20,000 nt of DNA from the IMG/VR virus record IMGVR_UViG_3300008113_000068; one strand, given 5' to 3'. Positions 4,990 through 17,658 of this stretch are shown piece after piece. The position numbers and the translations under genes were made by a program. The stretch's first letter is position 1, and each line of letters begins with the position of its first letter. A model generated the notes under the pieces. That model did not search any database. It was not told where the DNA came from and saw only the letters and a list, made by a program, of their open reading frames with translations. The stretch is from an uncultured virus (IMG/VR IMGVR_UViG_3300008113_000068). Its lineage: Duplodnaviria; Heunggongvirae; Uroviricota; Caudoviricetes.

Positions 4990-5831
4990 TCAAATTCTAA
5001 TTTACCTGTGTTTGCTAAATTCGTTTTTTCTGTAAACGATTGTGTTTCTTTAATTTCAATTGGTTCTAATGCAACGTCTTTCATTGCAGTTGTTTTCTTA
5101 GGTCTAAATGCCATATCAACAGTTGTATCACCATCTTTAATCGCTTGACCTATTCCTATCAATACAACTAAATCATCTTGTGTGACATGTTCAATTGCAG
5201 CTTTACCTACAACCGTTAGAATTTCGCGTTCTGTTAATTCGTATGTTGAAGCAAAACCATCAAATACTTTTTTGCGTTTTGCCATCAATTTCGTATCATC
5301 TGAAAGGTCACCTGTAATTTTGTGTTTCGCTTCATTGTAAACCTTATCAACGATTGCGCGAGGAATTACATTCAAGATAGCATTACGCATCGCAATAGAA
5401 TTAGCTGCATTACCCGTTACGGTAATCATATCTTCATTCATGCGACCAGATTTAGTCATAATACTTCTTTTTACTTCAACTTTGATTGCAAGGTTGTTTT
5501 CTAAATCAAATGCAATTGCCTGTGATGTTAATGTTTTTTGGTCAATCGTAATAACTTTCGCTTCAATACGTAAGTTTCCCCAATTCTGCGCAAGTATTTT
5601 TGCTAAGTGAACTGTAGGTCCTGTAATGACTTTTCCCGCGCGTGGTAATGAATATGTGCATGTAGATGCAGTTTCATAATCCATCGTTACGATAACTACT
5701 GAATTTTCTATTGCGCGTTTCAAATTACGCGGGTATGCTTTTGCTGTTGCTATTTGTGTATCAATTACTGCTTTGTCTTGGTTATAAATAACCGACATGT
5801 CTTGTACTTCTGTGATTGTAATATCTTCCAT
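4986..5831 (-). CDS. Putative single-strand annealing (RecT-like) recombination protein
   Basis: IDTQIATAKAYPRN...YSLPRAGKVITGPTVHLA..LAQNWGN pattern of a phage family usually found next to RecE-like exonucleases. The function is inferred from context. Confidence 0.55.
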   Translation of the reverse strand: MEDITITEVQDMSVIYNQDKAVIDTQIATAKAYPRNLKRAIENSVVIVTMDYETASTCTYSLPRAGKVITGPTVHLAKILAQNWGNLRIEAKVITIDQKTLTSQAIAFDLENNLAIKVEVKRSIMTKSGRMNEDMITVTGNAANSIAMRNAILNVIPRAIVDKVYNEAKHKITGDLSDDTKLMAKRKKVFDGFASTYELTEREILTVVGKAAIEHVTQDDLVVLIGIGQAIKDGDTTVDMAFRPKKTTAMKDVALEPIEIKETQSFTEKTNLANTGKLEFE

Positions 5832-6673
5832 TATAAAATTGTAATTAATTGTGAATCTTTTAGTGTATCAAAATATGTGTCTAAAGAACCTAAGGAATAG
5901 CATTCTTTGAGTAATTCAAATTCATTGTAACTAGGCCAATAATTATTGTCTTGACAGAATTTCAATAAATCTAATCCCATCCTGTATTGTTCGCGCCCGT
6001 AGTCATACATCTCATCATTCAATCCATACAATGCAACTTCGTATGGTGCAGTTTTTGAACATGCTGCAAAAATGTAATTCTCGCGCCCAATGAAGTCACA
6101 GTAATAAGCAGCTGAAAGTGAATAGGAGTATGTGAATACATCTGATTTGAATTTTCTTGCAGAAGAATCAAGACAACTTTTAATATCAACGATTGTACTT
6201 TTTGTTGAACTTAAAATATCTGGGCGTAATCTTATTTTTAAACCCGTTATCTCATCAATCGTATAACAAGACACCTCTCTGTGAGAATCCTTCATTAATT
6301 CCACAAGAGAATTGTTTTTCAAGGCGTTTTCAGATATCAACCTAATCATTTCCATTTCATCTTCATAAAGAATCGTTTTTCCTACTGAAGTTTCATTGAA
6401 TTCTGCAATCTGCTGTTTTCCTTCTTTTGTTCTTGCATCAACTTTTGGATAAACCACATAATTCGTTTTAAACAATTGAGGTTCTAGAATTAATTCATGC
6501 AAACCAGAACCTATGTTAAAATGCCTACCTGTTGATTTTTCAACTTTTTCGTTTCTCTCGTAATAATAGTAGCGCGGTGATTTTAGAAAGTTTTTGATGT
6601 CTGACGCTGATACATGGTCTTTTTTGCCTAAGTATTCTTCAAACGTGTCTTTGACAAATTCAGGTTTAATCAT
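5831..6673 (-). CDS. RecE/exonuclease VIII-like PD-(D/E)XK nuclease (DUF3799-like)
   Basis: VSASDIK, GSGLHELILEP, REVS, RLRPD, IVDIKS and Y..SAAYY motifs. Confidence 0.8.
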   Translation of the reverse strand: MIKPEFVKDTFEEYLGKKDHVSASDIKNFLKSPRYYYYERNEKVEKSTGRHFNIGSGLHELILEPQLFKTNYVVYPKVDARTKEGKQQIAEFNETSVGKTILYEDEMEMIRLISENALKNNSLVELMKDSHREVSCYTIDEITGLKIRLRPDILSSTKSTIVDIKSCLDSSARKFKSDVFTYSYSLSAAYYCDFIGRENYIFAACSKTAPYEVALYGLNDEMYDYGREQYRMGLDLLKFCQDNNYWPSYNEFELLKECYSLGSLDTYFDTLKDSQLITIL

Positions 6674-6902
6674 GATTGTTTTTTTTAAAGATGATTCTAT
6701 AAATACCGTAAATGTTAATTGCGATGATGATTAAACTCAAAGTCATGTGAGAAAGATTTTGAATATGAATATCATAATACACCCATCCCACATCACCAAT
6801 TAACCAAATAATCATTGCTAATTTCTTGAAGTCGATTGCATTGATAATATATCCACATAAAATCAAACTGGTTGACAACCATCCTATGAACTCCATTACC
6901 AT
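6666..6902 (-). CDS. Small 3-TM membrane protein (PnuC-half/PQ-loop-like); the start may be 6896
   Basis: Three hydrophobic helices with IGW, W..GD..W..Y and NIYGIY patterns. Confidence 0.55.
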   Translation of the reverse strand: MVMEFIGWLSTSLILCGYIINAIDFKKLAMIIWLIGDVGWVYYDIHIQNLSHMTLSLIIIAINIYGIYRIIFKKNNHD

Positions 6903-7477
6903 TTGATTAAGATTAAGCCAAAAGCAATAGAAATTACGCGTTGTGGTTTTGAAATTGGTTGTACTTCTTTGATAACTTCTTGTTGAACTTTAACTTGTAC
7001 TTCTTCTTGTGCATCGGATTTTTGTTCTTTTGCATCGGATACCTCTGACTCTATTTGTATGCAATTTACTTCTGATGATGGCATTTTAATAACTTTCCAT
7101 TCTTCTTCTGAAATTTCAGTTTGTTCAAATATACCTTGCTGTTGTTGCAGTTCAAGTTTCTGTTGTTTAATTTTCAATTGATGTTTTGCGTTACCTTCCT
7201 TATTTATTTTGATAATTTCATCCATCAATTTTTTAGCCATGTAGATATTTGGTTGTATCGTATTCCACGTGTATGAATAAGTTGATTTACCTCTACCTAA
7301 ACCAAGAACTTTTGTGCGTTCAAGAACTTTATGCCTAACTAATATTGGGAATACAACTGTTGTGACATTGTGGCTTTTACAAAATTCCTTATACCCATGC
7401 ATTTTTAATCCATTGTTGGTTTTTGTATAAACATCCCACAATATGGTCATGAATCTTTCTTCTGAATACCTTTTCAT
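6896..7477 (-). CDS. Hypothetical protein (possible wHTH N-terminus, Q/E-rich middle)
   Basis: 193-aa ORF in operon with A-rich start region. Confidence 0.7.
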   Translation of the reverse strand: MKRYSEERFMTILWDVYTKTNNGLKMHGYKEFCKSHNVTTVVFPILVRHKVLERTKVLGLGRGKSTYSYTWNTIQPNIYMAKKLMDEIIKINKEGNAKHQLKIKQQKLELQQQQGIFEQTEISEEEWKVIKMPSSEVNCIQIESEVSDAKEQKSDAQEEVQVKVQQEVIKEVQPISKPQRVISIAFGLILIKW

Positions 7478-7513
7478 TCTTATTTGTTTTTATGGTTATT
7501 TGATAATTTAATA

Positions 7514-8140
7514 TTAAAAGAAAACACCGTTTGAAAGAACTTTATATGTGTTCTGACCTACTTTTTTGAACAAACCCACTTTAACTAAATAGTTAATTGT
7601 TTTTTTGTGATAGCTTGGTTTGTACATAATATCTTGCTGAATCTTGTCTGCACCAAATTTTAAATCAATGAATCTTTTGCATACTTCATTCATATCAATT
7701 GGTTTCAAAGGGTAATCTTTCTTTTCATCAATAATTTCTACTTCTGCCAAATGATAGATTTTTAAAGCTTCGTTAAAAAAGAAATGTTGTTTTTTAGTCA
7801 AGCTATACTCTTTACCGTTAATCATCATGACTGTATTTTCTTTCTTGTTTTTCGTGAACTTCTCTTTTTTGTACGTTCCTTTTAAAACTTCTTTGTGTTC
7901 AACAATCTGTCCAACTTCAACCCATGTTTCATCAACTAATTTTTCGTTTGAGTTTTTGTCATTGAAATCTTTAACAATCTGTTTTTTCTCTTTAACCCAA
8001 GGAAGGTCTTCATCAGAATCATTTTCATCCATACTAACTACATCGTAAATAGGTAATGGTTGTTCTTTTGATTCTGGTTTTGATTTTTTAGTGAACAAAG
8101 ATTTAATCCATGTTGCAACTGTGTAAAGCACTCTTTTCAT
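7514..8140 (-). CDS. Hypothetical protein (possible C-terminal wHTH)
   Basis: 208-aa ORF; C-terminus TINYLVKVGLFKKVGQNTYKV resembles a helix plus wing. Confidence 0.7.
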   Translation of the reverse strand: MKRVLYTVATWIKSLFTKKSKPESKEQPLPIYDVVSMDENDSDEDLPWVKEKKQIVKDFNDKNSNEKLVDETWVEVGQIVEHKEVLKGTYKKEKFTKNKKENTVMMINGKEYSLTKKQHFFFNEALKIYHLAEVEIIDEKKDYPLKPIDMNEVCKRFIDLKFGADKIQQDIMYKPSYHKKTINYLVKVGLFKKVGQNTYKVLSNGVFF

Positions 8141-8150
8141 TTATGTTTGT

Positions 8151-8435
8151 TTATTGGTTACTGATTGAATTATCTTCCTCTACTTCAGTGTAGGAAGCAT
8201 TAAAGATATCTGGTTTACATGGATAATACTCATCATATATACCGCGTATTACAAAATCACCATGGCGCACAATGTGTTCACCTTCTAAGGTACTTATAAT
8301 AATTATGTTTTCTGATTCAATAATTTTGTGTGGGAAGTCACCAATAAACTTGCTAACTTGTTGAACGTTTTCAGTTAAATATTGAATTGCTTCAATTTCA
8401 ATAGGCTTTTTAATGTACTTTTTAACTTTGTTCAT
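8151..8435 (-). CDS. Conserved phage protein (PGDYG-like family)
   Basis: KKPIEIEAIQY...TLEG....GDFVIRG...EYYPCKPDIF..SY signature. Confidence 0.75.
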   Translation of the reverse strand: MNKVKKYIKKPIEIEAIQYLTENVQQVSKFIGDFPHKIIESENIIIISTLEGEHIVRHGDFVIRGIYDEYYPCKPDIFNASYTEVEEDNSISNQ

Positions 8436-8451
8436 CTTTATTAATTTTTTT

Positions 8452-8483
8452 CAAATATAATTGTTTTTTGTATAAACGTACAA
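8452..8483 (-). promoter_or_regulatory. Bacteroidota promoter TTG-N21-TATATTTG
   Basis: caaatata at 8452-8459 and caa at 8481-8483 on the + strand; intergenic. Confidence 0.65.
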
Positions 8484-8489
8484 TTTTTT

Positions 8490-8756
8490 TTAAATATTTT
8501 TTTCATCAGGTTGTTTATGAATAAATACCTCCTCAACTGGTCGTTTCAAGACAGTAGATATTTTGATTGCGATAGGCAATGAAATACTTCTTCTCTGACC
8601 ATTAATGATTCGAGATAAATGTGCTGCATTACCATCAAGTGCTAAATCTGCTAATTCTTGCTGAGACATTCCTATTTCGTTTAAAATAATTCTAATTCTG
8701 TTGCTGTGTAATTTCTCTTTTGGTTTTTTGACTTTTACTACTTTCTCCTCTTCCAT
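8490..8756 (-). CDS. XRE-family helix-turn-helix regulator
   Basis: NRIR..L...GMSQQELA.......LSRIING.....L..AIKIS..L..PVEEVF. Confidence 0.9.
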   Translation of the reverse strand: MEEEKVVKVKKPKEKLHSNRIRIILNEIGMSQQELADLALDGNAAHLSRIINGQRRSISLPIAIKISTVLKRPVEEVFIHKQPDEKNI

Positions 8757-8759
8757 AAC

Positions 8760-9377
8760 TTATTTTTTATCGGTGTTTAAATTTAATGTGTGATTTTCTG
8801 TGTTTTTACCATCATTTACTTTTTGTTCTAAAATATAAAATCCGGTGTTTTCATGCATACGTATTTCTAATTTGTCTTGTACTAATTCCATAAAATCATG
8901 TAACTCATCTGCGTTGAAACCAGAAAGCATGATTCCTTTGTTTCCTTTTACTTTGATTGACATATAGTCATTGAAATCAACATAGTAAAATTCTTCATCT
9001 ATTTCGATATTCTTTTTTAACGCGTTTGATTTTAACTTGATTGTTTTATTCAATCGAGTTACATCCATTTTAACTTGCTTATCACAATCCATTAGGTTTA
9101 CAATTGTTCTACATGCATGTAAAACAGTCGCGTGGTCTTTTTTCCCAAATAGTTCACCTATTGCACTCAAACTGTAATTTGTATGTGTTTTTATTAATTG
9201 CATCGCAACTTGTCTTGGAAAACATATTTCTCGTTTTCGCGTTTTCATTTTCAAAAAATGCTCTTCAATATTATAATACTTACAAGTTAGCTTGATGATG
9301 TAATCTGCTAACCGTATATTATGCGTTGAATTAGAAAGCATAATCATCTCAGCAACGCTATTTCTATTCTTTTTCAT
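8760..9377 (-). CDS. Stand-alone DnaA domain IV (C-terminal DNA-binding HTH) protein
   Basis: KTRKREICFPRQVAMQL...SLSAIGELFGKKDHATVLHAC matches the DnaA C-terminal signature. There is no AAA+ domain. Confidence 0.85.
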   Translation of the reverse strand: MKKNRNSVAEMIMLSNSTHNIRLADYIIKLTCKYYNIEEHFLKMKTRKREICFPRQVAMQLIKTHTNYSLSAIGELFGKKDHATVLHACRTIVNLMDCDKQVKMDVTRLNKTIKLKSNALKKNIEIDEEFYYVDFNDYMSIKVKGNKGIMLSGFNADELHDFMELVQDKLEIRMHENTGFYILEQKVNDGKNTENHTLNLNTDKK

Positions 9378-9379
9378 TT

Positions 9380-10864
9380 TTAAAATGGTGTTTCGGTTTC
9401 TAATGATGGACTAAAAAAATCTTCATTAGGTCTGATAGCTTTTGTTTCAGATTCAAATTCATCTTGTTGCACAAATGTACGATTATTATCTTCTTGTGCA
9501 AAAGGTTTTGAGGAGCCAAATGAATGATTTGTTAATTTAGTTTGCTCATGTAGGAATGTTAATGGTATTTCACCTAATTCACCATTTCTATGTTTTGCAA
9601 TAATCAACATAAATAAACCTTCTGTTTGAAATTGATTACTTCCTATTTCATATTGTTCTATTCCATAATATTCTGGTCTATAACAAAACAATACCATATC
9701 GGCATCCTGTTCTATTTGTCCTGATTCACGTAAATCCTGTAACATTGGTTTTTTATCACCGCGCATTTCAACACCACGACTTAATTGTGATAATGCAATA
9801 ACAGGTAAATTCAATTCCTTTGCAAGTGATTTTAATCCACGACTAATTTCTGCAATTTCTTGTTCGCGACTTGTTGTTCTAACTCCCGACCTCATTAATT
9901 GTAAATAATCAATTACGATTAATTGAATGTTTGATTCCTTCTTTAACTTTCTTGCTTTACCTTTTAATTCAAGAAGTGAAATGTTTGGTGTATCATCAAT
10001 GAAAATAGGTGTTTGTTTTAAATCACCTGCTTTCGTTGTTATTTGAACTATTTCATTTTCTGCTAATTGTTTCTTTACAATTTTTGAAACGTTAACTCCT
10101 GATAGGAATGATTGCATCCTAGAAACTAATTGCTCATTTGACATCTCAAGTGAAAATATCGCAATAGGCATTTGTAATTCCATTGCAGGATGAATACACA
10201 TTGATATTGCTGCTGCTGTTTTTCCCATTGATGGTCGTCCGGCAAGAATAATTAAATCTGAATTTTGCCAACCATTCGTGACATTGTCTAATAAATGTAA
10301 ACCTGTTGGTACACCTGATTTTTGTTTCGTCTTTAATATCTCAATGCTTTTAGCAATTATTTCATCATGAACTGCACCTACATTTTTTATTTCATAATTA
10401 ACTACTTTCTTTAACGCATCATCTAAATCGGTTTGTGTTTCATTAAATAGTTCAAATACATCTTGTGATTCATCAAATGACTTTTGTAATGCATTACTTC
10501 CAATAGTAATTAAATTACGTCTTAATGCCTCTTCTTGTAAAATGCGAATATGATGTTCAATGTTTGACGTTGAGCCAATCTTTGATGTTAAATCAGAAAT
10601 GAATAACGCTCCTCCTGCTTTTTCTAAATCATTATTGCGTTGTAATTCTTTTATAATTGTAACTAAATCAATTGAAACATTCTTTTTGTAAAGGTCAATA
10701 ATTGCCTTTGCAATAACCTTGTTTTTCTCCTCGTAGAATAGATTAATTGAAAATTCTGATATAATCCTATCAATGACTGTACTATCAATTAAAATCGAAC
10801 CCAATACAACTTCCTCTATCCCCGATGCTTTTAATTCTAATTCATCATTGTTTCTTTTTTTCAT
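9380..10864 (-). CDS. dnaB: Replicative DNA helicase DnaB
   Basis: AGRPSMGKT (Walker A), FSLEMS, IDYLQLM, LSQLSR, DLRESGQIEQDAD, AKHRNG; full N-terminal domain present. Confidence 0.97.
   Translation of the reverse strand: MKKRNNDELELKASGIEEVVLGSILIDSTVIDRIISEFSINLFYEEKNKVIAKAIIDLYKKNVSIDLVTIIKELQRNNDLEKAGGALFISDLTSKIGSTSNIEHHIRILQEEALRRNLITIGSNALQKSFDESQDVFELFNETQTDLDDALKKVVNYEIKNVGAVHDEIIAKSIEILKTKQKSGVPTGLHLLDNVTNGWQNSDLIILAGRPSMGKTAAAISMCIHPAMELQMPIAIFSLEMSNEQLVSRMQSFLSGVNVSKIVKKQLAENEIVQITTKAGDLKQTPIFIDDTPNISLLELKGKARKLKKESNIQLIVIDYLQLMRSGVRTTSREQEIAEISRGLKSLAKELNLPVIALSQLSRGVEMRGDKKPMLQDLRESGQIEQDADMVLFCYRPEYYGIEQYEIGSNQFQTEGLFMLIIAKHRNGELGEIPLTFLHEQTKLTNHSFGSSKPFAQEDNNRTFVQQDEFESETKAIRPNEDFFSPSLETETPF
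9472..9502 (-). promoter_or_regulatory. Internal Bacteroidota promoter TTTG-N19-TACATTTG in the dnaB 3' tail
   Basis: Full consensus and spacing, about 95 nt upstream of the DnaA-IV gene. Confidence 0.55.
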
Positions 10865-11460
10865 AACCCTAATATTTTCCCTTTCGATTTTACTGTTTCT
10901 CCAACTAATGTAACTTTCGCAATATTATTAGGAACCCAATAAATAAAATGCTTCGCACATTCACCAGCATCTACATAAACTGTACTTACTGCCATTTGCT
11001 CTTTTATGAATAATTCAATCATATTCAATATTTGATTCTTAGTCATCCTTTGTTTCATTCCTATTAAATCAATCAAACTTTGATTCTCTTGTAATTCCTT
11101 TTGAAATTGTTCTGGTGTTTTTTTTAAGTTAATGACATTAGTTTGTTCTCTGTTTAATAAACTCCTATCAATCAATTGCCCCCACATGTTGTTAAAAGTA
11201 ATTCTATTCAAAGAAATAGTTACAATTTTTGCATGGTGTAGTTCAACGAAATTCGATTCCCATTTTGGATAGTTCGGAATTTCTGAAATAAACATTTCAA
11301 AAGACATTGCATTTTCATCCAATGAGTCTTTTCCTTTGAAGTGTTTGATGAGGCAATTGATATAAAGAGATTTAGTCATTGAAGATATTTTGCAATCTTT
11401 CTTTGCATCAAATATCTGTTCAATCACATCAAGTGTAATTAATGAAAGCATGTTTCTCAT
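10861..11460 (-). CDS. Putative replication initiator/helicase loader; probable start 11460 (TAATG overlap with queE stop)
   Basis: Immediately upstream of and overlapping dnaB; C-terminal F..EQ....Y....ECAKHFIYW helical motif. Function is inferred from position. Confidence 0.45.
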   Translation of the reverse strand: MRNMLSLITLDVIEQIFDAKKDCKISSMTKSLYINCLIKHFKGKDSLDENAMSFEMFISEIPNYPKWESNFVELHHAKIVTISLNRITFNNMWGQLIDRSLLNREQTNVINLKKTPEQFQKELQENQSLIDLIGMKQRMTKNQILNMIELFIKEQMAVSTVYVDAGECAKHFIYWVPNNIAKVTLVGETVKSKGKILGL

Positions 11461-12176
11461 TACACACCTGTTTTCTGATTCCAAATAACTACATGTAAAC
11501 GTTCTGAGTATCTCAGTTGGTTTTTACGACATAACTCAGCAACCAACAATCTTGTGCGTAATAATTCTTCTTGTGATGAACCTGCTGGCATCAAAACAAC
11601 TTGGTCCATTAAAATGTGATGTCCATAATCATCAATCACTTCATCAAAATCTGATTCTTTTTCAATAACAAATTTGAAAATAGTGCTTGACAATTGATTT
11701 TTAAATAAATTCAATGCATTGGGATTTATTCTAACCTTTTTTGTATTCTGTTCACCTGCGTTTGATAGTTTAGGTGATACGTTCCAATAATCAACCCATC
11801 CTAACATATCTTCACTTGGTTCTATAGTTGCATTTGTTTCAATTTCAATGATTGGATATACTCTGTATTTTTCGAAAAAGTAATTAAAAAATTCAACAAT
11901 CATCTTTTGATGTATTAAAGGTTCTCCACCTGTAACAACCAAATGAACTTTGTGCTTTAAAAGTAACTTCTCATACTCCTCACCTAATACTTCTTCAAAT
12001 GGTAATGCTTTTGATTTACGCCATACCTCAATCGTATCGCAAATCCATGATTCTGATTGGCAGAGGATATTGCATCCACCTAATCGTAAAAATACAGCAG
12101 GTATTCCCATCGTTTGGCCTTCGCCTTGAATAGAATAAAATACTTCTGATACGGGTAATTTTTTTACAGTGCTCAT
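11460..12176 (-). CDS. queE: 7-carboxy-7-deazaguanine synthase (radical SAM)
   Basis: EVFYSIQGEG..G.PAVFLRLGGCN..C, CDT, VTGGEP, EIETN, VSPKL, KFVI, RLHV..W motifs. Confidence 0.95.
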   Translation of the reverse strand: MSTVKKLPVSEVFYSIQGEGQTMGIPAVFLRLGGCNILCQSESWICDTIEVWRKSKALPFEEVLGEEYEKLLLKHKVHLVVTGGEPLIHQKMIVEFFNYFFEKYRVYPIIEIETNATIEPSEDMLGWVDYWNVSPKLSNAGEQNTKKVRINPNALNLFKNQLSSTIFKFVIEKESDFDEVIDDYGHHILMDQVVLMPAGSSQEELLRTRLLVAELCRKNQLRYSERLHVVIWNQKTGV

Positions 12177-13231
12177 AATTCGTAAATGTCTTTAAGTTTT
12201 TCAATTATTTTATCTGGTGTGATTCGGTAAGGAACTTGCCATTCACTTATGAAAGTAAAATCTTTAATTCCTACATTGTCTTGAATTTCTTCAAGGTTCA
12301 TTTTTTCCTCTACAATTTTTGTATCGGGATACTTTGTTGTTAAATATGCCTTTGATAGAATTTTACATGCGTTTACAATTTGTTCCGCATCTTCATATAT
12401 CCAAAGTATGTTGTCAATTAATTTAAAAGCGGTGATTGAATCTTCCTGTTCTTCATTTACTTCCTCAGGTGGCGTACCAAACAAGATATCTAATTCAATT
12501 TCTTTTTCTGCCATATCGAATGGTTCAACATAAGGTTGTATTGTTTGTTCGACATTACCATTTAATTCAAAAAATAAATCAGACATTCCTATAACTTTTT
12601 CCTCTTCAACAGGTATATCAGTTATTTTGTCTAAGTCAGTTGGGAATACAAAATCTTCTTTTACTTCTAATGTTTGTTCGATTTGCATTTCTAAAACTTC
12701 CTCTTGCCATTGTTGTAATGGCTCTTCTTCTTCTTCGATAATATCAAACATTGAAATTTGTCCTTCGATTTGTTTGTTTTGTTCAAACGCATCCCAATCA
12801 AATTCAGTCATAGAAATCATCTTCTTTGCCTGGCGAACATCGTATGGTAGGTAGTTGCAAATTTCTTCAAGTTTGTGTGTGTCTGAAATTTGTTTCAACA
12901 TCTCGCCAATGAATACGTAATTGGTCAAAAAATAATCTCTTGAAATTTCAATTCTAACTAAGTTTTTTTGTTCATCCGATAAAATACCCATGTTAATACC
13001 CAAAACCTCATCAAAACCCAATTCTTTTAGCGCTTTGCATATTTTTGAACCTTCTAAACATTCGTAACCTGTTTCAGTTTCACAAACAACCACGTTTTTC
13101 AATTGTCCACGTAATTGAATTGACTTTTTCATCTTTTCAAATAACAAAGAATCGTTTTCTTTAATGTTGCGTTCTGAAAACTGAATGTCTGCAATTTTTA
13201 AATATTCCACTCTATTCCCCTGCTTCTCCAT
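12173..13231 (-). CDS. ParB/Srx-like N-terminal domain protein with a long acidic region
   Basis: LKIADI....N......FEKMKKSIQLRGQLKNVVV....GYECLEG....KALKELG resembles ParB-N; E-rich central region. Confidence 0.65.
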   Translation of the reverse strand: MEKQGNRVEYLKIADIQFSERNIKENDSLLFEKMKKSIQLRGQLKNVVVCETETGYECLEGSKICKALKELGFDEVLGINMGILSDEQKNLVRIEISRDYFLTNYVFIGEMLKQISDTHKLEEICNYLPYDVRQAKKMISMTEFDWDAFEQNKQIEGQISMFDIIEEEEEPLQQWQEEVLEMQIEQTLEVKEDFVFPTDLDKITDIPVEEEKVIGMSDLFFELNGNVEQTIQPYVEPFDMAEKEIELDILFGTPPEEVNEEQEDSITAFKLIDNILWIYEDAEQIVNACKILSKAYLTTKYPDTKIVEEKMNLEEIQDNVGIKDFTFISEWQVPYRITPDKIIEKLKDIYEL

Positions 13232-14022
13232 AATTCAGTTATGTATTTTTCTAAGTTAATGTAATATTGCAATGCTTCATGAAAATCAGTTGTTGGGTCG
13301 TAGTACAAAAGATTATTTCGTGTAAGATTTTTCTTTGGTATTTTTTCAAGTTCATGATAATCAAACAACTCACCAAACCTACCTACATTAATCCACGAAC
13401 TGCTATCAGCTGAATAACATGGGAATTTTTCAAGTGAATCTTTTGCAGTCAATCCCAATACATGCGTTCTAACCGTATCTTTTACTTGATTGAATACTTC
13501 GCCTAACCACTTGTTGCGACTTTCAACAGATTGGTCATTTGCGGGTGAAATACCAATGTAATTTAAGTCATTACATTCCTTGGTAATCAAGTCAAGGTAT
13601 TTTAAATCCTCAAACTGGTGAAACGTGTGAATGGTTGAATGCCCTTTCGATTTTATGTAATGGTAATTTTCAATACCTTTTTCACATGCAGTTACAATTT
13701 GTGTTTTTGTTGGTTTTGTTCCTTTAATATGTGGAATAACGTCTAAGTTGATAAAGTAAATATCATGTATGGTATTTATCTTCTTCACCTTATCAATAAA
13801 TTCGACATAATGGTCAATATCAATTTTCAAACCCCTGTTCCATGCTGAAAAGGCGCCCGAGTCAATTAATATCAAAAATTTCTTGTGTGTGTATGTTGCT
13901 AAATGTTCAACTTGATTAATTACTTTCTTGTCCTCGTATGAGAATAGATAGCTTGTAGCACCATGTGCCACAAGCCAATCTAATAACTCATTCTTTTTTA
14001 CAGCAGAAAAGATTATTCTCAT
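13198..14022 (-). CDS. dpdA: DpdA-like DNA-guanine transglycosylase (TGT fold)
   Basis: IDSGAFS, NLDVI, TFH, YIGI, HVLG and SADSSSW motifs. It lacks the tRNA-TGT zinc site and lies inside the que cluster. Confidence 0.85.
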   Translation of the reverse strand: MRIIFSAVKKNELLDWLVAHGATSYLFSYEDKKVINQVEHLATYTHKKFLILIDSGAFSAWNRGLKIDIDHYVEFIDKVKKINTIHDIYFINLDVIPHIKGTKPTKTQIVTACEKGIENYHYIKSKGHSTIHTFHQFEDLKYLDLITKECNDLNYIGISPANDQSVESRNKWLGEVFNQVKDTVRTHVLGLTAKDSLEKFPCYSADSSSWINVGRFGELFDYHELEKIPKKNLTRNNLLYYDPTTDFHEALQYYINLEKYITELWRSRGIEWNI

Positions 14023-14459
14023 TTCTCAATTGAAAATGATTGTAACCCACCTTCAGTACATGTTACATCAATACCACCACGTGTGTTGTACTTCGTAATA
14101 ACAGTTACATTATCATGACCAAGAACTTTACATAAATCTTTGTACATGCGATAAGTTACACCTTCTTGATAAATACCTACGTTTCTGTATGAAAGGAAAT
14201 AGTATTTCAATGCTTTCAATTCTAACGCAACATTTGTTGATGGGTAATACTTAATGATGATTCTTGCGATGTCTGGTAATCCCGAAAATGGACACACTGC
14301 TGAAAACTCATGTGTATCAATTTCGATTAACTGATTTTTTGATGGAAATTCAAAGGTGATTAATTCCTCTGTGCGAATTGCATCTTCTGTTTGAAAAGCC
14401 AAAACTTTTCCTTCTGCCACTTGACCTACTTTCGGGTCGATACTACTTACTGGATCCAT
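14019..14459 (-). CDS. queF: NADPH-dependent preQ0 reductase (unimodular QueF)
   Basis: EFSAVCPFSGLPD (catalytic Cys/Asp), QueF motif ELKALKYY, YQE and RGGI. Confidence 0.92.
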   Translation of the reverse strand: MDPVSSIDPKVGQVAEGKVLAFQTEDAIRTEELITFEFPSKNQLIEIDTHEFSAVCPFSGLPDIARIIIKYYPSTNVALELKALKYYFLSYRNVGIYQEGVTYRMYKDLCKVLGHDNVTVITKYNTRGGIDVTCTEGGLQSFSIEK

Positions 14460-14484
14460 TATATTTGTTTTTATTGGTTACTAT

Positions 14485-14715
14485 TTATAAACTTGTTATG
14501 TACGCAATGTTGTCTTTTATTTCTAAAACACCTGTGCATGTAATGTGGTATTTGAATTGATTGATGTCCGCCATGAAATCTTTCGTTGTAGATATGCTAC
14601 CATGAACCGATATGCCTTCAACTAATATTTCTTCGCCATCTGCAATAACTCGCCAACAATCTTTATCTGATGTTGCTTTGTTGTTATATCTAATTTTAAA
14701 TGTTTGCTTTTTCAT
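14485..14715 (-). CDS. Hypothetical beta-rich protein (76 aa)
   Basis: In-operon ORF overlapping the upstream gene. Confidence 0.7.
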   Translation of the reverse strand: MKKQTFKIRYNNKATSDKDCWRVIADGEEILVEGISVHGSISTTKDFMADINQFKYHITCTGVLEIKDNIAYITSL

Positions 14716-15106
14716 CTTCTTGTTGTTGTTTTAATTGTTCTCGAATTTTTGTTGCTGAAATGTTTGCTATTTCATCTGATGGTACGTGTTCAATAATATC
14801 ATATCCAACATCTCTTCCAATATTGATTGAATCAATGTCTGGGATAATAACAACTCTTATTACACCATCTTTTATCTCATTCACAAATCTTTTTTGCAGA
14901 GCATCAAAAATTTCTTCTGCTGTCCATGGATTTTTTTCATCAACTTCAACATCGCGAATTGCAATGCAAACGTTTTTACCCTCATTCAATGATTGATTAA
15001 TCAGCCATTGATGTCCATCATGCCATGGCTGCCAACGACCAATATACAATGCATACTTTTGTGACCCTGTTGTTTTGTTTGATGCTTTTACAATAATTTT
15101 TTCCAT
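14696..15106 (-). CDS. HIGH-superfamily nucleotidyltransferase (cytidylyltransferase/NMNAT/ATP-sulfurylase-like)
   Basis: IGRWQPWHDGH (HxGH), NP and ISATKIR motifs. Confidence 0.8.
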   Translation of the reverse strand: MEKIIVKASNKTTGSQKYALYIGRWQPWHDGHQWLINQSLNEGKNVCIAIRDVEVDEKNPWTAEEIFDALQKRFVNEIKDGVIRVVIIPDIDSINIGRDVGYDIIEHVPSDEIANISATKIREQLKQQQEDEKANI

Positions 15107-15582
15107 AATAATTCAAATGATTCTTCGTCTTTTTTATACGATGTGTTAATACTAAGTGATTGATAATTGTTTGTGTAAGATGGTTGTTCAAAATAGTCGA
15201 CATGAAATTGTTCGCGACCACGTTCTTCTATGCATTCAACAAAAATTTCAACTCCATTTAATTCTTTAACTATTTGTTTGCGTTGTTCGGCAAATGGGGA
15301 AACCATACAAACGATAGCCGTAATATCATTTTTGACTAAGAACCTGCAACAGTTTTGAACCATTTCAACATTCTTTTTACGCCCATCAATTGAGTAATCT
15401 TTGTTGTTGAATAAATCGCGTATTTCATCACCATCTAAAATAACTACTTTTTCGCGACCGTTGTTCATTAAATCCAATCTTTTTTTCAACAATTGAGCAA
15501 GTGTTGTTTTACCTGCACCCGGTTGTCCTGTGAACCAATATAGTTTGTGTTCGGGAATGTTTATTATTTTCATTACTTTCAT
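15088..15582 (-). CDS. cysC: Adenylyl-sulfate (APS) kinase
   Basis: WFTGQPGAGKTTLA, LDGDEIR, DYS.DGR..N, VSPF...R and FEQP motifs. Confidence 0.85.
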   Translation of the reverse strand: MKVMKIINIPEHKLYWFTGQPGAGKTTLAQLLKKRLDLMNNGREKVVILDGDEIRDLFNNKDYSIDGRKKNVEMVQNCCRFLVKNDITAIVCMVSPFAEQRKQIVKELNGVEIFVECIEERGREQFHVDYFEQPSYTNNYQSLSINTSYKKDEESFELLWKKLL

Positions 15583-15583
15583 T

Positions 15584-16258
15584 TTATATAGATTTTGAAA
15601 TGAATTCTTCGTAACCTTTTTGTCTTAATTCACATGCAGGGCATTTTGCACACCCATAACCCCAATCATGTCTTTGAGTTCTATCGCCATTGTAGCATGT
15701 GTGTGAATGTTCAATTACTTCATGAATACAATCATAGTCTTGTGCCATTTCAAATGTCTGTGCTTTAGTTAAATACATCAATGGTGTTTCAATCACAATG
15801 TTTGATGCAGAACCAATGTTTGATGCAACTTGTATTAAATCAACAAAATCTTTTCTGCAATCTGGGTAACCTGAATAGTCAGTTTGACAAACACCTGTGA
15901 TTAAAACTTTTGCATTTATTTTTTGCGCGTATGCATGAGCTAGTGTAATGAACAATTGATTTCTATTTGGTACAAATGATGCAGGTAAACCTTTTTCGTT
16001 TATTTCGTTTACATCACCATTTGAAGTCAATGCAGATTCAACTAAAGTATTCAAGAATGAAATATCAACTATTGTTTGTTTGACTTGCTCCATTTCGCAA
16101 ATTTTGATTGATTGGTCAATTTCAACTGAATGTTTTTGACCATACGCAAATGTAATTGCCTCTACTTCATCGTATGTTTCTAATGCATAGTAAAGGCATG
16201 TTGTTGAATCTTGCCCTCCTGAAAAGATTACAACTGCTTTTGTTTTTTCTGTTTTCAT
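15584..16258 (-). CDS. queC: 7-cyano-7-deazaguanine synthase
   Basis: FSGGQDS, YGQKH, VPNRN, YPDCR, TPL, TCY and C..CPAC motifs. Confidence 0.97.
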   Translation of the reverse strand: MKTEKTKAVVIFSGGQDSTTCLYYALETYDEVEAITFAYGQKHSVEIDQSIKICEMEQVKQTIVDISFLNTLVESALTSNGDVNEINEKGLPASFVPNRNQLFITLAHAYAQKINAKVLITGVCQTDYSGYPDCRKDFVDLIQVASNIGSASNIVIETPLMYLTKAQTFEMAQDYDCIHEVIEHSHTCYNGDRTQRHDWGYGCAKCPACELRQKGYEEFISKSI

Positions 16259-16259
16259 T

Positions 16260-16748
16260 TTATTTTAAAGTATAGGTTGCTGAATTTTTTGCGTGTTCAT
16301 AAAATGTAACTTTTGTTGCTTTAACGCGACCATTTGTTTCTTCTTCAAGGAATGAATTAATTGTAAAGAATAAAAATTCTGCAAACCTTTCACATCCTAC
16401 ATGTTCTACAATACGCAATTGAATGATGCCTTTTCGGTCTAACTCTTTGAACATATCAAGTTCAGGGTCATCTTGCGCAACAATTGTTGTATGGTCAAAA
16501 AGCCATGTAAAAAATTCATTAGGAGCCATTATCAATTCTTTGCCCATGTGTTCAATGTTGATAAAGGTTTTAGAACGTTTCATTCCTCCAAAATCAAATA
16601 CCCAATTGCGTTCATCTAATTCACCTTCGAAGGTTACTTTAAATGATACTCCATACCCATGTAAAAATTTACAATGTGTAGTATCTGCTTTCCATTGACG
16701 AAAGCACGTAGAATAACCATCAAACAATTTTTTTGATTGAAATTTCAT
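16260..16748 (-). CDS. queD: 6-carboxy-5,6,7,8-tetrahydropterin synthase
   Basis: HCKFLHGY, GELD..NWVFDFG, FDH and C-terminal E..KNSA motifs. Confidence 0.9.
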   Translation of the reverse strand: MKFQSKKLFDGYSTCFRQWKADTTHCKFLHGYGVSFKVTFEGELDERNWVFDFGGMKRSKTFINIEHMGKELIMAPNEFFTWLFDHTTIVAQDDPELDMFKELDRKGIIQLRIVEHVGCERFAEFLFFTINSFLEEETNGRVKATKVTFYEHAKNSATYTLK

Positions 16749-16753
16749 ATTGA

Positions 16754-17311
16754 TTATTTTATAAGGTTTAAGAATTCTTGTCTAGTATTCAACTCATCAT
16801 AGAATACACCTTTCATTGCAGATGTAGTCGTATAGCAATCATGTTTTTTTACCCCGCGCATTTCAACACATAAGTGTCTTGCTTTGATAACTACCGCAAC
16901 TCCTTTTGGATTTAATTTATCCATAAGGTACTGCGCGACATCATGAGTGATTCTTTCTTGATTCTGTGGTTTTCTAGAAAACATATCCAATGTTCTTGGT
17001 AATTTTGACAACCCAACAATTTTATCGTTAGGAATGTATGCAATAGATGCCGTACCAAAGAAAGGTGCTAAGTGATGTTCACATAATGAAAAGAAAGGAA
17101 TGTTTGAAACGATAATCATTTCGTTTTGAGAACCTTCATTTTCAAATGTAGTCATGTTAAAAGGTTCGGGATTGCAAAATTCTTTTAGAAATTTCACGTA
17201 GCGTTTAGGTGTATCAATCAATCCTTCACGCGTTGGGTCTTCACCTACTGATTTAAGTAATGTTTGTACTGCTTTAATCTCAGCTTTGTTAATCGAATAC
17301 TTTTTACTCAT
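16754..17311 (-). CDS. folE: GTP cyclohydrolase I
   Basis: GEDPTREGL.DTP.R, SLCEHH..PF.G, GLSK..R, QER.T and H.C..MRGV motifs. Confidence 0.97.
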   Translation of the reverse strand: MSKKYSINKAEIKAVQTLLKSVGEDPTREGLIDTPKRYVKFLKEFCNPEPFNMTTFENEGSQNEMIIVSNIPFFSLCEHHLAPFFGTASIAYIPNDKIVGLSKLPRTLDMFSRKPQNQERITHDVAQYLMDKLNPKGVAVVIKARHLCVEMRGVKKHDCYTTTSAMKGVFYDELNTRQEFLNLIK

Positions 17312-17332: not shown

Positions 17333-17596
17333 TTATACTAATTTATTTTCTTTACTTCCAAATAATTTGATGTTTGCTCTACCACAAATAGGCATTATTT
17401 CTGTTGTTACTTCGGTTCCTTTTTTGATTATCTTTTGATTTTTCAAAACAATATCATCTTGTAAAATCTCTTTTATCTTACCTTCGTAACCATATACTTT
17501 CCTATCTGGTTCCTGTACTACGATATTTCCTATCAATTTGTTTTTGATGAAATATTCTTTCGTGTAACCTAAAATTTCGAATACTGAACTTTGCAT
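17333..17596 (-). CDS. Hypothetical protein (87 aa; probable start MQSSVF at 17596)
   Basis: The longer start at 17665 overlaps a promoter; ATG 17596 has an A-rich leader. Confidence 0.65.
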   Translation of the reverse strand: MQSSVFEILGYTKEYFIKNKLIGNIVVQEPDRKVYGYEGKIKEILQDDIVLKNQKIIKKGTEVTTEIMPICGRANIKLFGSKENKLV

Positions 17597-17628
17597 TTTT
17601 TGTGTATTAAATTCATTGTTTGATTGCA

Positions 17629-17658
17629 CAAATATACATTTTTTTTTAATTGCAACAA
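17629..17658 (-). promoter_or_regulatory. Bacteroidota promoter TTG-N19-TATATTTG heading the deazaguanine operon
   Basis: caaatata at 17629-17636 and caa at 17656-17658 on the + strand. Confidence 0.7.

Follow-up and report, generated by a model that had tools for sequence, protein, structure and literature searches.

A phage operon for 7-deazaguanine DNA modification that encloses a separate, candidate sulfate-activating gene cassette

The DNA analysed here is a stretch of 20,000 nucleotides (hereafter the window) from an uncultured virus of the class Caudoviricetes (IMG/VR record IMGVR_UViG_3300008113_000068). Its minus strand carries, from position 17311 to 11460, an operon in the order folE, queD, queC, a gene for an adenosine 5'-phosphosulfate (APS) kinase-like protein, a gene for a small HxGH nucleotidyltransferase, a gene for a 76-amino-acid (aa) protein, queF, dpdA, a ParB-like gene and queE. 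Our reading, to which we assign a probability of roughly 0.6, is that two separate things share this operon: a system for placing the modified base preQ1 into DNA, of the type known from phage phiSM, and a three-gene cassette that would produce the sulfate donor 3'-phosphoadenosine 5'-phosphosulfate (PAPS). Nothing found indicates that they work together. The enzyme activities, the PAPS product and its sink are all inferred. The window represents 20 kb of the phage genome, and statements of absence from it cover this stretch only.

The window is a near-continuous series of minus-strand genes. Throughout the operon, the coordinates place neighbouring genes 1-25 nt apart or overlapping by 4-34 nt, and the cassette between queC and queF shows 1-nt gaps and 19-20-nt overlaps. 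All ten genes lie on the minus strand at the places given in the initial annotation, whose gene order and tight packing are thereby borne out. Families were assigned from a Pfam scan of 28 open reading frames (ORFs) at E<=0.01, and the 12 unknown ORFs were rescanned at E<=1.

The preQ0 pathway is complete in this operon, with FolE, QueD, QueE and QueC all present. FolE (16754..17311) is a predicted GTP cyclohydrolase I, the enzyme of the first step to preQ0, and scores 221.8 bits with PF01227 and 212.2 bits with TIGR00063 (cut-off 181.6). QueD (16260..16748), a 6-carboxytetrahydropterin synthase, scores 47.8 bits with PF01242 and matches phrog_2389 at 3.1e-36, and QueC (15584..16258), the preQ0 synthase, reaches 246.1 bits with PF06508 and 246.5 bits with TIGR00364 (cut-off 150.3). 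QueE (11460..12176), the radical-SAM 7-carboxy-7-deazaguanine synthase, matches phrog_2076 at 2.8e-55 and PF13353 with 26.3 bits. Downstream of the cassette, QueF (14019..14459) is a unimodular NADPH-dependent preQ0 reductase that makes preQ1 (TIGR03139, 97.6 bits, cut-off 86.9), and the adjoining gene (13198..14022) encodes a DpdA1-like DNA guanine transglycosylase, which matches phrog_887 at 1.8e-35 and no Pfam family. Curated NCBIfam cut-offs are exceeded by FolE, QueC and QueF, and QueD and QueE are backed by Pfam, PHROG and 47-52% identity to their phiSM counterparts.

The similarity to phiSM extends along the whole set, with identities of 69% for QueC, 58% for QueF, 52% for QueE, 47% for QueD and 37% for FolE. 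The DpdA protein is 35% identical to phiSM gp52 (DpdA1) over 274 columns (E 3e-38), and its DSG motif is invariant in a five-sequence alignment. The QueF stretches AVCPFSGLPD and ELKALKYY are unchanged relative to phiSM, and AVCPFSG and ELKALKYY correspond to the catalytic Cys and the QueF motif of such reductases. Uncultured relatives (loci L086-L089), retrieved like the other que-cluster relatives by means of the QueF core and a QueC alignment, have a FolE-QueF-DpdA(-ParB-like)-QueC core in common. The family scores and the phiSM-like match thus agree with the initial annotation that the que and dpdA genes form a complete preQ1-to-DNA set. From its sequence, the locus is a phiSM-type dPreQ1 system and appears to be a new member of the DpdA1/QueF systems.

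The phiSM study (PMC10516641) reports dPreQ1, with a small amount of mdPreQ1, in phiSM DNA and places the phage's DpdA in subfamily DpdA1. The phiSM cluster also has two larger genes without assigned function, gp53 and gp55, one of which should encode DpdM (DUF3109). A tblastn search at E<=1 found no counterpart of either in the window, and the Pfam scan found neither DUF3109 nor a formyltransferase family among the 28 ORFs. There is no DpdM or DpdN homolog, and plain dPreQ1 is therefore the predicted end product; the que and dpdA genes should yield dPreQ1-DNA. In the scheme that we propose, FolE, QueD, QueE and QueC would convert GTP to preQ0, QueF would convert preQ0 to preQ1, and the DpdA1-like transglycosylase would swap guanine in phage DNA for preQ1, probably assisted by the adjacent ParB-like protein. 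The outcome would be dPreQ1-DNA that is resistant to restriction.

The association of the cassette with these genes was assessed in three sets of loci. For the viral cassette set of 82, the best 80 of the 569 transferase relatives confirmed in IMG/VR were taken, along with two loci found with the kinase. The viral que set of 85 comprises the 80 loci from IMG/VR that hold the closest relatives of QueC and the five closest QueF/DpdA1 clusters, and the cellular set comprises 80 prokaryote loci with the transferase. Counts of neighbouring sulfotransferase and que genes refer to the DNA fetched around each locus.

QueF, DpdA and the ParB-like protein occur in none of the 82 viral cassette loci. FolE, QueD and QueC are each found in one and QueE in two, all of them in L060 and L063 only. 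The prokaryote loci have no QueC, QueF or DpdA (0/80 for each), and FolE is present in one. Conversely, the transferase profile, which scores 199 bits on the window, matches none of the 85 viral que loci; the kinase profile (176 bits on the window) gives three marginal matches of 18-19 bits there. DpdA is present in 49 and QueF in 15 of the 80 QueC loci. The three middle genes of the operon are a self-contained cassette without association to que genes. The third and decisive interpretive step of the initial annotation, by which the position between queC and queF marks the pair as supplying a donor for dPreQ1, fails because the kinase/transferase pair occurs independently of que and dpdA, the first half of the refutation set out there. 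The co-occurrence of cysC plus the nucleotidyltransferase with queF/dpdA across phages, put forward there as a check, is not seen in these loci.

The cassette genes do keep company with each other. The kinase gene lies upstream of the transferase gene on the same strand in 77 of the 82 viral loci and abuts it in 68, and in three of the five loci without a kinase match (L056, L070, L074) the transferase is within ~310 nt of a contig end. The kinase profile matches 69 of the 80 prokaryote loci. Seventy-seven homologs of the transferase are longer, fused forms, and most of these carry PF01583. The same fusion is evident in phrog_10255, annotated 'kinase', whose 230 positions correspond to the kinase in the first half and the transferase in the second.

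The arrangement seen in the window recurs only in two metagenome contigs of the same lineage, L090 and L091, which share ~96% identity with the window and have the same gene order. Two other relatives of the window phage carry the cassette apart from que genes. In L081, whose kinase and DnaB are 81% and 68% identical to those of the window, the cassette lies downstream of dnaB, a DnaA-C-like gene and a helix-turn-helix gene. This 9-kb contig has no que genes, and ahead of its p207 homolog ThyA-, MazG- and PALP-type genes take the place that que genes occupy in the window. L082, with a kinase 82% identical, has no que gene on 16 kb. Because only L090 and L091 keep the arrangement, and L081 and L082 have the cassette without que, the combination is specific to one lineage. 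We propose that the cassette was inserted between queC and queF in this lineage and that it moves independently, occurring in many phages as well as in some bacteria and archaea.

The first cassette gene (15088..15582) encodes a P-loop kinase that resembles APS kinases but is shortened in its C-terminal (lid) region. The protein scores 67.8 bits with PF01583, above the cut-off of 21.1, over profile positions 5-111 of 152, and 67.5 bits with TIGR00455 against a cut-off of 138.7. All 21 matches in a PDB sequence search at E<=0.001 are APS kinases, the best being 8a8h (5e-13). The alignment with solved APS kinases runs through the P-loop GAGKT, the LDGDxxR motif, the following R..N and the SP strand (VSP), and most of the lid region is missing. 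The residues of the LDGDxxR...R..N...SP signature are presumably those that bind the phosphosulfate in APS kinases. In four viral loci, a HAD-type phosphatase of ~112 aa is encoded between kinase and transferase (L012 3036-3401, L017 4761-5108, L030 6110-6448 and L063 7663-8001); it could be a phosphatase for PAPS or for 3'-phosphoadenosine 5'-phosphate.

The second gene (14696..15106) encodes a 136-aa HxGH nucleotidyltransferase that matches PF01467 with 22.3 bits (cut-off 21). Its motifs are WHDGH and ISATKIR, and in a 26-sequence alignment GRWQPWHxGH, GR-x-x-GY and ISATxIR are invariant. The family resembles nicotinamide mononucleotide adenylyltransferases (NMNATs): the best NCBIfam match is the NMNAT model NF002243 (38.6 bits, 7.9e-10, cut-off 127), TIGR01527 gives 33.9 bits against a cut-off of 181.2, the best PDB matches of the family profile are archaeal NMNATs (4yp7, 4.5e-8, within the first 78 positions, 4-78), and the single sequence matches 2qjo at 5.5e-6. 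Relative to NMNATs, ~24 residues are absent between the fourth strand (PDIE) and the SAT motif, and the GR-x-x-GY loop is an invariant feature of the transferase's own. Neither PF01747 (Sat) nor PF01507 (CysD) matches the transferase at E<=0.01, and the 27 PDB sequences that the family profile reaches at E<=10 include no ATP sulfurylase. A structure model with a mean predicted local distance difference test (pLDDT) score of 78.3 has Foldseek matches to NadM, NMNAT and phosphopantetheine adenylyltransferase (PPAT) over ~77 residues at a best E of 3.4e-3. No ATP sulfurylase is among the top 50 matches listed in this weak search (best E ~3e-3), and its matches do not discriminate between functions. 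Judged by sequence similarity, the transferase is derived from NMNAT-type enzymes and is apparently not a homolog of Sat or CysD.

The transferase gene also differs between closely related strains. Between 14700 and 15075 of the window, a ~300-nt patch is 62-91% identical to L090 in surroundings of 96-100% identity, and the encoded protein is 76% identical, compared with 97-100% for its neighbours. The divergent patch looks like recombination from another allele.

Its genomic context marks the transferase as a good candidate for an ATP sulfurylase of a third type, one of very small size. Sulfotransferase genes are found near the cassette in 12 of the 82 viral loci, eight of the PF13469 type beside or near the kinase and four of the PF03567 type, and a profile of the phage sulfotransferases matches in 14 of the 80 prokaryote loci. 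In those loci where the cassette has a visible partner gene, this gene encodes a sulfotransferase and belongs to an island of glycan or fibre type. A second line of evidence comes from a sample of 101 genomes of one order, of which 64 have a Sat-type ATP sulfurylase. The five genomes with the transferase are not among these 64; they have no PF01507 match above 22.9 bits, and all five have PF13469 sulfotransferases. By simple arithmetic, the chance of all five falling among the 37 genomes without Sat is ~0.006, a value that overstates the evidence because the five genomes are small and probably of one clade. In a phylum-wide sample, the transferase is present in 3 of 121 genomes.

The initial annotation had described the kinase and the HxGH transferase as a sulfate-activation-like pair, and the PDB matches of the kinase, the sulfotransferase neighbours and the absence of Sat make a PAPS-forming pair the best reading. 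It is probable that the cassette makes PAPS. The HxGH transferase would most likely adenylylate sulfate (ATP + sulfate -> APS + pyrophosphate), and the APS-kinase-like enzyme would then phosphorylate APS to PAPS. The most likely sink of the PAPS is a sulfotransferase whose gene lies elsewhere in the phage genome or in the host, in line with other phages in which the cassette neighbours sulfotransferase and glycan genes; the 7-deazaguanine pathway most likely does not receive it. Within the window, no sulfotransferase was found among the 28 ORFs or, at E<=1, among the 12 unknown ones; a phage sulfotransferase profile (cluster-17) reaches a best E of 0.36 with any window frame, and the cluster-48 profile gives no match. 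The initial annotation had likewise recognised none. Literature searches of titles and abstract openings returned no paper describing the cassette and no description of such a mini ATP sulfurylase.

A number of observations weigh against this reading. On the enzymatic side, the kinase stays under the NCBIfam APS-kinase cut-offs (54-69 bits versus 127 and up) and covers about two thirds of the Pfam profile, the C-terminal third of the transferase is modelled poorly (pLDDT 54-71), and its nearest relatives by sequence and fold are NMNAT and PPAT rather than ATP sulfurylase. As many as 70 of the 82 viral loci have no sulfotransferase in the fetched DNA, and in four virus records of 95-100% completeness neither PF13469 nor PF00685 matches, while PF03567 gives weak matches (17-19 bits) in three. 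The complementarity of Sat and transferase comes from five small genomes, probably of one clade and of unstated completeness. Other points would favour a link between the cassette and the que genes. The cassette runs in the direction of the que genes next to it, overlaps or abuts them and is retained in the strain variants L090 and L091, and just 20 kb of the window phage can be read. Finally, L063, a complete 191-kb phage unrelated to the window, has a QueC-like gene directly before the kinase gene, and QueD and QueE lie ~3.5 kb downstream.

The L063 locus (5771-13046) encodes in succession thioredoxin, the QueC-like protein (283 aa), kinase, HAD, transferase, a 2OG-Fe(II) oxygenase, DUF2061, carbamoyltransferase, QueD, QueE and ferredoxin. 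The complete record (G023) has no match to the DpdA1 profile or to PF01702, the tRNA-guanine transglycosylase (TGT) family, and a QueF-like frame is located at 184 kb. Because the record is rich in other auxiliary genes, we read the adjacency of QueC-like gene and kinase as co-location in a variable island. This run of genes may serve a different 7-deazapurine product.

Among the alternatives, the cassette might use the same two steps to form another 3'-phospho-adenylate, either a coenzyme A-like compound (by PPAT and dephospho-CoA kinase chemistry) or a signalling or anti-defence nucleotide. The transferase matches PPAT structures in both the fold and the profile search, most of the viral loci show no sulfotransferase, and many neighbourhoods concern nucleotide or DNA metabolism. 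In ~35 freshwater phage contigs of up to ~51 kb (for example L014, 4315-9355), the cassette always lies between DUF3310 and an N6/N4 DNA methylase, with neither DUF2061 nor a sulfotransferase visible in these loci, and others have ThyX or DUF1599 as neighbours. This explanation is nevertheless unlikely. The kinase keeps the APS-kinase signature LDGDxxR...R..N...SP, the truncated acceptor region of the transferase would suit a small anion better than phosphopantetheine, and the cassette is complementary to Sat in genomes.

It is also quite improbable that the pair is an NAD-related module, in which an adenylyltransferase of NMNAT type would work with a kinase to regenerate NAD(P), whether to supply QueF with NADPH or to counter NAD-depleting defences. 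QueF requires NADPH, other phages carry NadM-Nudix genes, and the closest named or solved relatives of the transferase (NF002243, 2qjo and 4yp7), as well as its top fold matches (NadM and NMNAT), belong to this chemistry. However, the ~24 residues that the transferase lacks after the PDIE strand and before the SAT motif are those in which, we presume from known structures, NMNATs hold nicotinamide mononucleotide, and the score of 38.6 is far under the NMNAT cut-off of 127. The partner enzyme is a homolog of APS kinases (21/21 PDB matches) and not a ribosylnicotinamide kinase of the NadR type or an NAD kinase, and the cassette goes with sulfotransferases and with the absence of Sat.

The proposal that PAPS or another donor is used by an unrecognised transferase to modify the aminomethyl group of dPreQ1, for example by a sulfotransferase outside the window or among its unknown ORFs whose N-sulfonation would give a sulfamate-bearing, negatively charged, undescribed hypermodified base, is highly improbable: it could appeal to the overlapping layout kept in L090 and L091, to the run in L063, to the 20-kb view of the phage and to sulfotransferases that may escape detection, as the 17-19 bits of PF03567 in three complete phages suggest, yet sulfonated dPreQ1 is not supported because the key enzyme was not found in the window and the co-occurrence test failed, with cassettes but no que genes on the contigs L081 and L082 and no TGT or DpdA1 match in the complete L063 record. 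A title-level search found no literature linking 7-deazaguanine with sulfotransferases.

The third cassette gene of the window (14485..14715) encodes the 76-aa protein, which has no Pfam or PHROG family and is read as an accessory of the cassette. Its model (pLDDT 93.2) is a confidently folded all-beta domain that resembles no solved structure, with a best PDB Z of 2.6 (VIA-align, 48,161 chains), and a search of the ESM Atlas with the protein gave no usable match. A third small gene usually follows the transferase; in most loci it encodes DUF2061, with two predicted membrane helices, for whose function a title-level search found no literature. Homologs of the 76-aa protein were found in six loci, after the transferase or inside the cassette (L082, 84% identity; L001, 48%; L057, L030, L021 and L174), and in L001 the homolog is fused to DUF2061. 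Spacing between the transferase gene and the 76-aa gene varies: the strain variant L093 (476-1438) has ~960 bp of extra DNA there, and L082 has three small ORFs.

The ParB-like gene (12173-13231) belongs to the phiSM-type part of the operon. Its product has an N-terminal ParB/Srx-type domain, which matches phrog_16545 at 1.2e-9 over residues 9-152 and PF02195 with only 16.4 bits, and a ~200-aa acidic C-terminal extension; the C-terminal half matches no family at E<=1. The protein is 27-28% identical to phiSM gp51 (E 1e-11). A ParB-like gene directly follows dpdA in four of six close clusters, namely the window, phiSM (L083, 7510-7974, gp51), L086 (~9965-10447) and L089 (from ~2120), and is detectable in 5 of the 80 QueC loci. 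In bacterial Dpd systems, the ParB-like DpdB is described as an ATPase that DpdA needs for base insertion (PMC10164549). By analogy, the phage ParB-like protein may be the counterpart of DpdB and the missing helper of DpdA1. If so, it could explain why phiSM DpdA1 is reported as inactive when expressed alone in E. coli (PMC10516641), in a main text that mentions kinase, ParB and nucleotidyltransferase zero times each.

The initial annotation had placed the operon behind one promoter. A sigma-70 scan of the window gave 30 sites compared with 44.9 in shuffled sequences; this shortfall lends no support for, or against, a single promoter, and Bacteroidota promoters differ from the sigma-70 consensus. 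Boxes reading TATATTTG and TATATTG are present at 17596-17640 on the minus strand, just 5' of an internal ATG in the 110-aa ORF that precedes folE, and they resemble what we take to be the Bacteroidetes -7 promoter element. The 110-aa ORF, and with it the operon, may start at that internal ATG. The phage probably comes from Bacteroidota, because its QueC is 68-70% identical to genes of Cellulophaga phages and its GC content is 29-34%. Elsewhere in the window, a 208-aa ORF (7514-8140) matches PF07737, the anthrax lethal factor N/C-terminal domain, at E 0.0014 with 18.8 bits (cut-off 27.4), and probably has a distant metallopeptidase-like or ADP-ribosyltransferase-like fold. In IMG/VR, a single-sequence DpdA query returned no relative, nor did a two-sequence QueF alignment, for which N-terminal patterns were what was searched. 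Neither viral_contigs nor metagenome_contigs contains an exact copy of a 40-base string taken from the end of the window.

Compared with known systems, the que part of the operon is closest to the phiSM dPreQ1/mdPreQ1 cluster, which consists of DpdA1, FolE, QueD, QueE, QueC, QueF and DpdM (PMC10516641). Seven core genes, among them the ParB-like gene beside dpdA, are common to the two clusters at 27-69% identity, as is the QueF-DpdA-ParB-like adjacency. The window differs in its order, with folE-queD-queC first and queE last, in the lack of gp53 and gp55 homologs, and in the extra acidic extension of the ParB-like protein; neither phiSM nor any of the four other closest clusters, L086-L089, has the three-gene cassette. 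Bacterial Dpd systems also place the gene for a TGT-like DNA transglycosylase beside that for a ParB-fold protein, as DpdA-DpdB (PMC10164549). The ParB-like protein of the window is much diverged from these, with LEGSKICKA in the region of the ParB box where, in a by-eye comparison, the DGQQR motif stands, and there are no DpdC or restriction genes at the window locus.

The cassette resembles PAPS synthases (Sat or CysDN with CysC, and the fused Sat-CysC/PAPSS forms 2gks and 1x6v) in its predicted two-step logic, its APS-kinase homolog, the frequent fusion into one chain and the nearby sulfotransferase genes. It differs in that the first enzyme is only ~115-135 aa, appears to be NMNAT-derived and has no Sat (PF01747) or CysD homology, and in the shortened C-terminal region of the kinase. 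With archaeal and NadM-type NMNATs (1ej2, 4yp7, 2qjo), the transferase has GRxQPxHxGH, ISxTxIR and the N-terminal Rossmann-like core in common, and it is set apart from them by ~24 fewer residues before SxT, its own GR-x-x-GY loop, sub-cut-off scores and an APS-kinase homolog as partner. If the transferase is an ATP sulfurylase, many phages would have a source of activated sulfate of their own, as would some of the streamlined bacteria and archaea of the sea that lack Sat and CysDN.

Cultured phages carry the fused form of kinase and transferase as the phrog_10255 'kinase' proteins, such as gp35 of Xylella phage Sano and the 'adenylylsulfate kinase' of phage Bacata. Unlike the separate proteins of the window, these are single chains of ~245 aa; they are 28-36% identical to the window proteins, and their genes stand among early genes, where the annotation shows no que genes close by. 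For DNA-modification biology, the operon is mostly a caution: adjacency in a phage operon, even with overlapping ORFs, is no proof that genes act in one pathway if some of them belong to a mobile cassette. What is new in the window is only the juxtaposition of the que system and the cassette.

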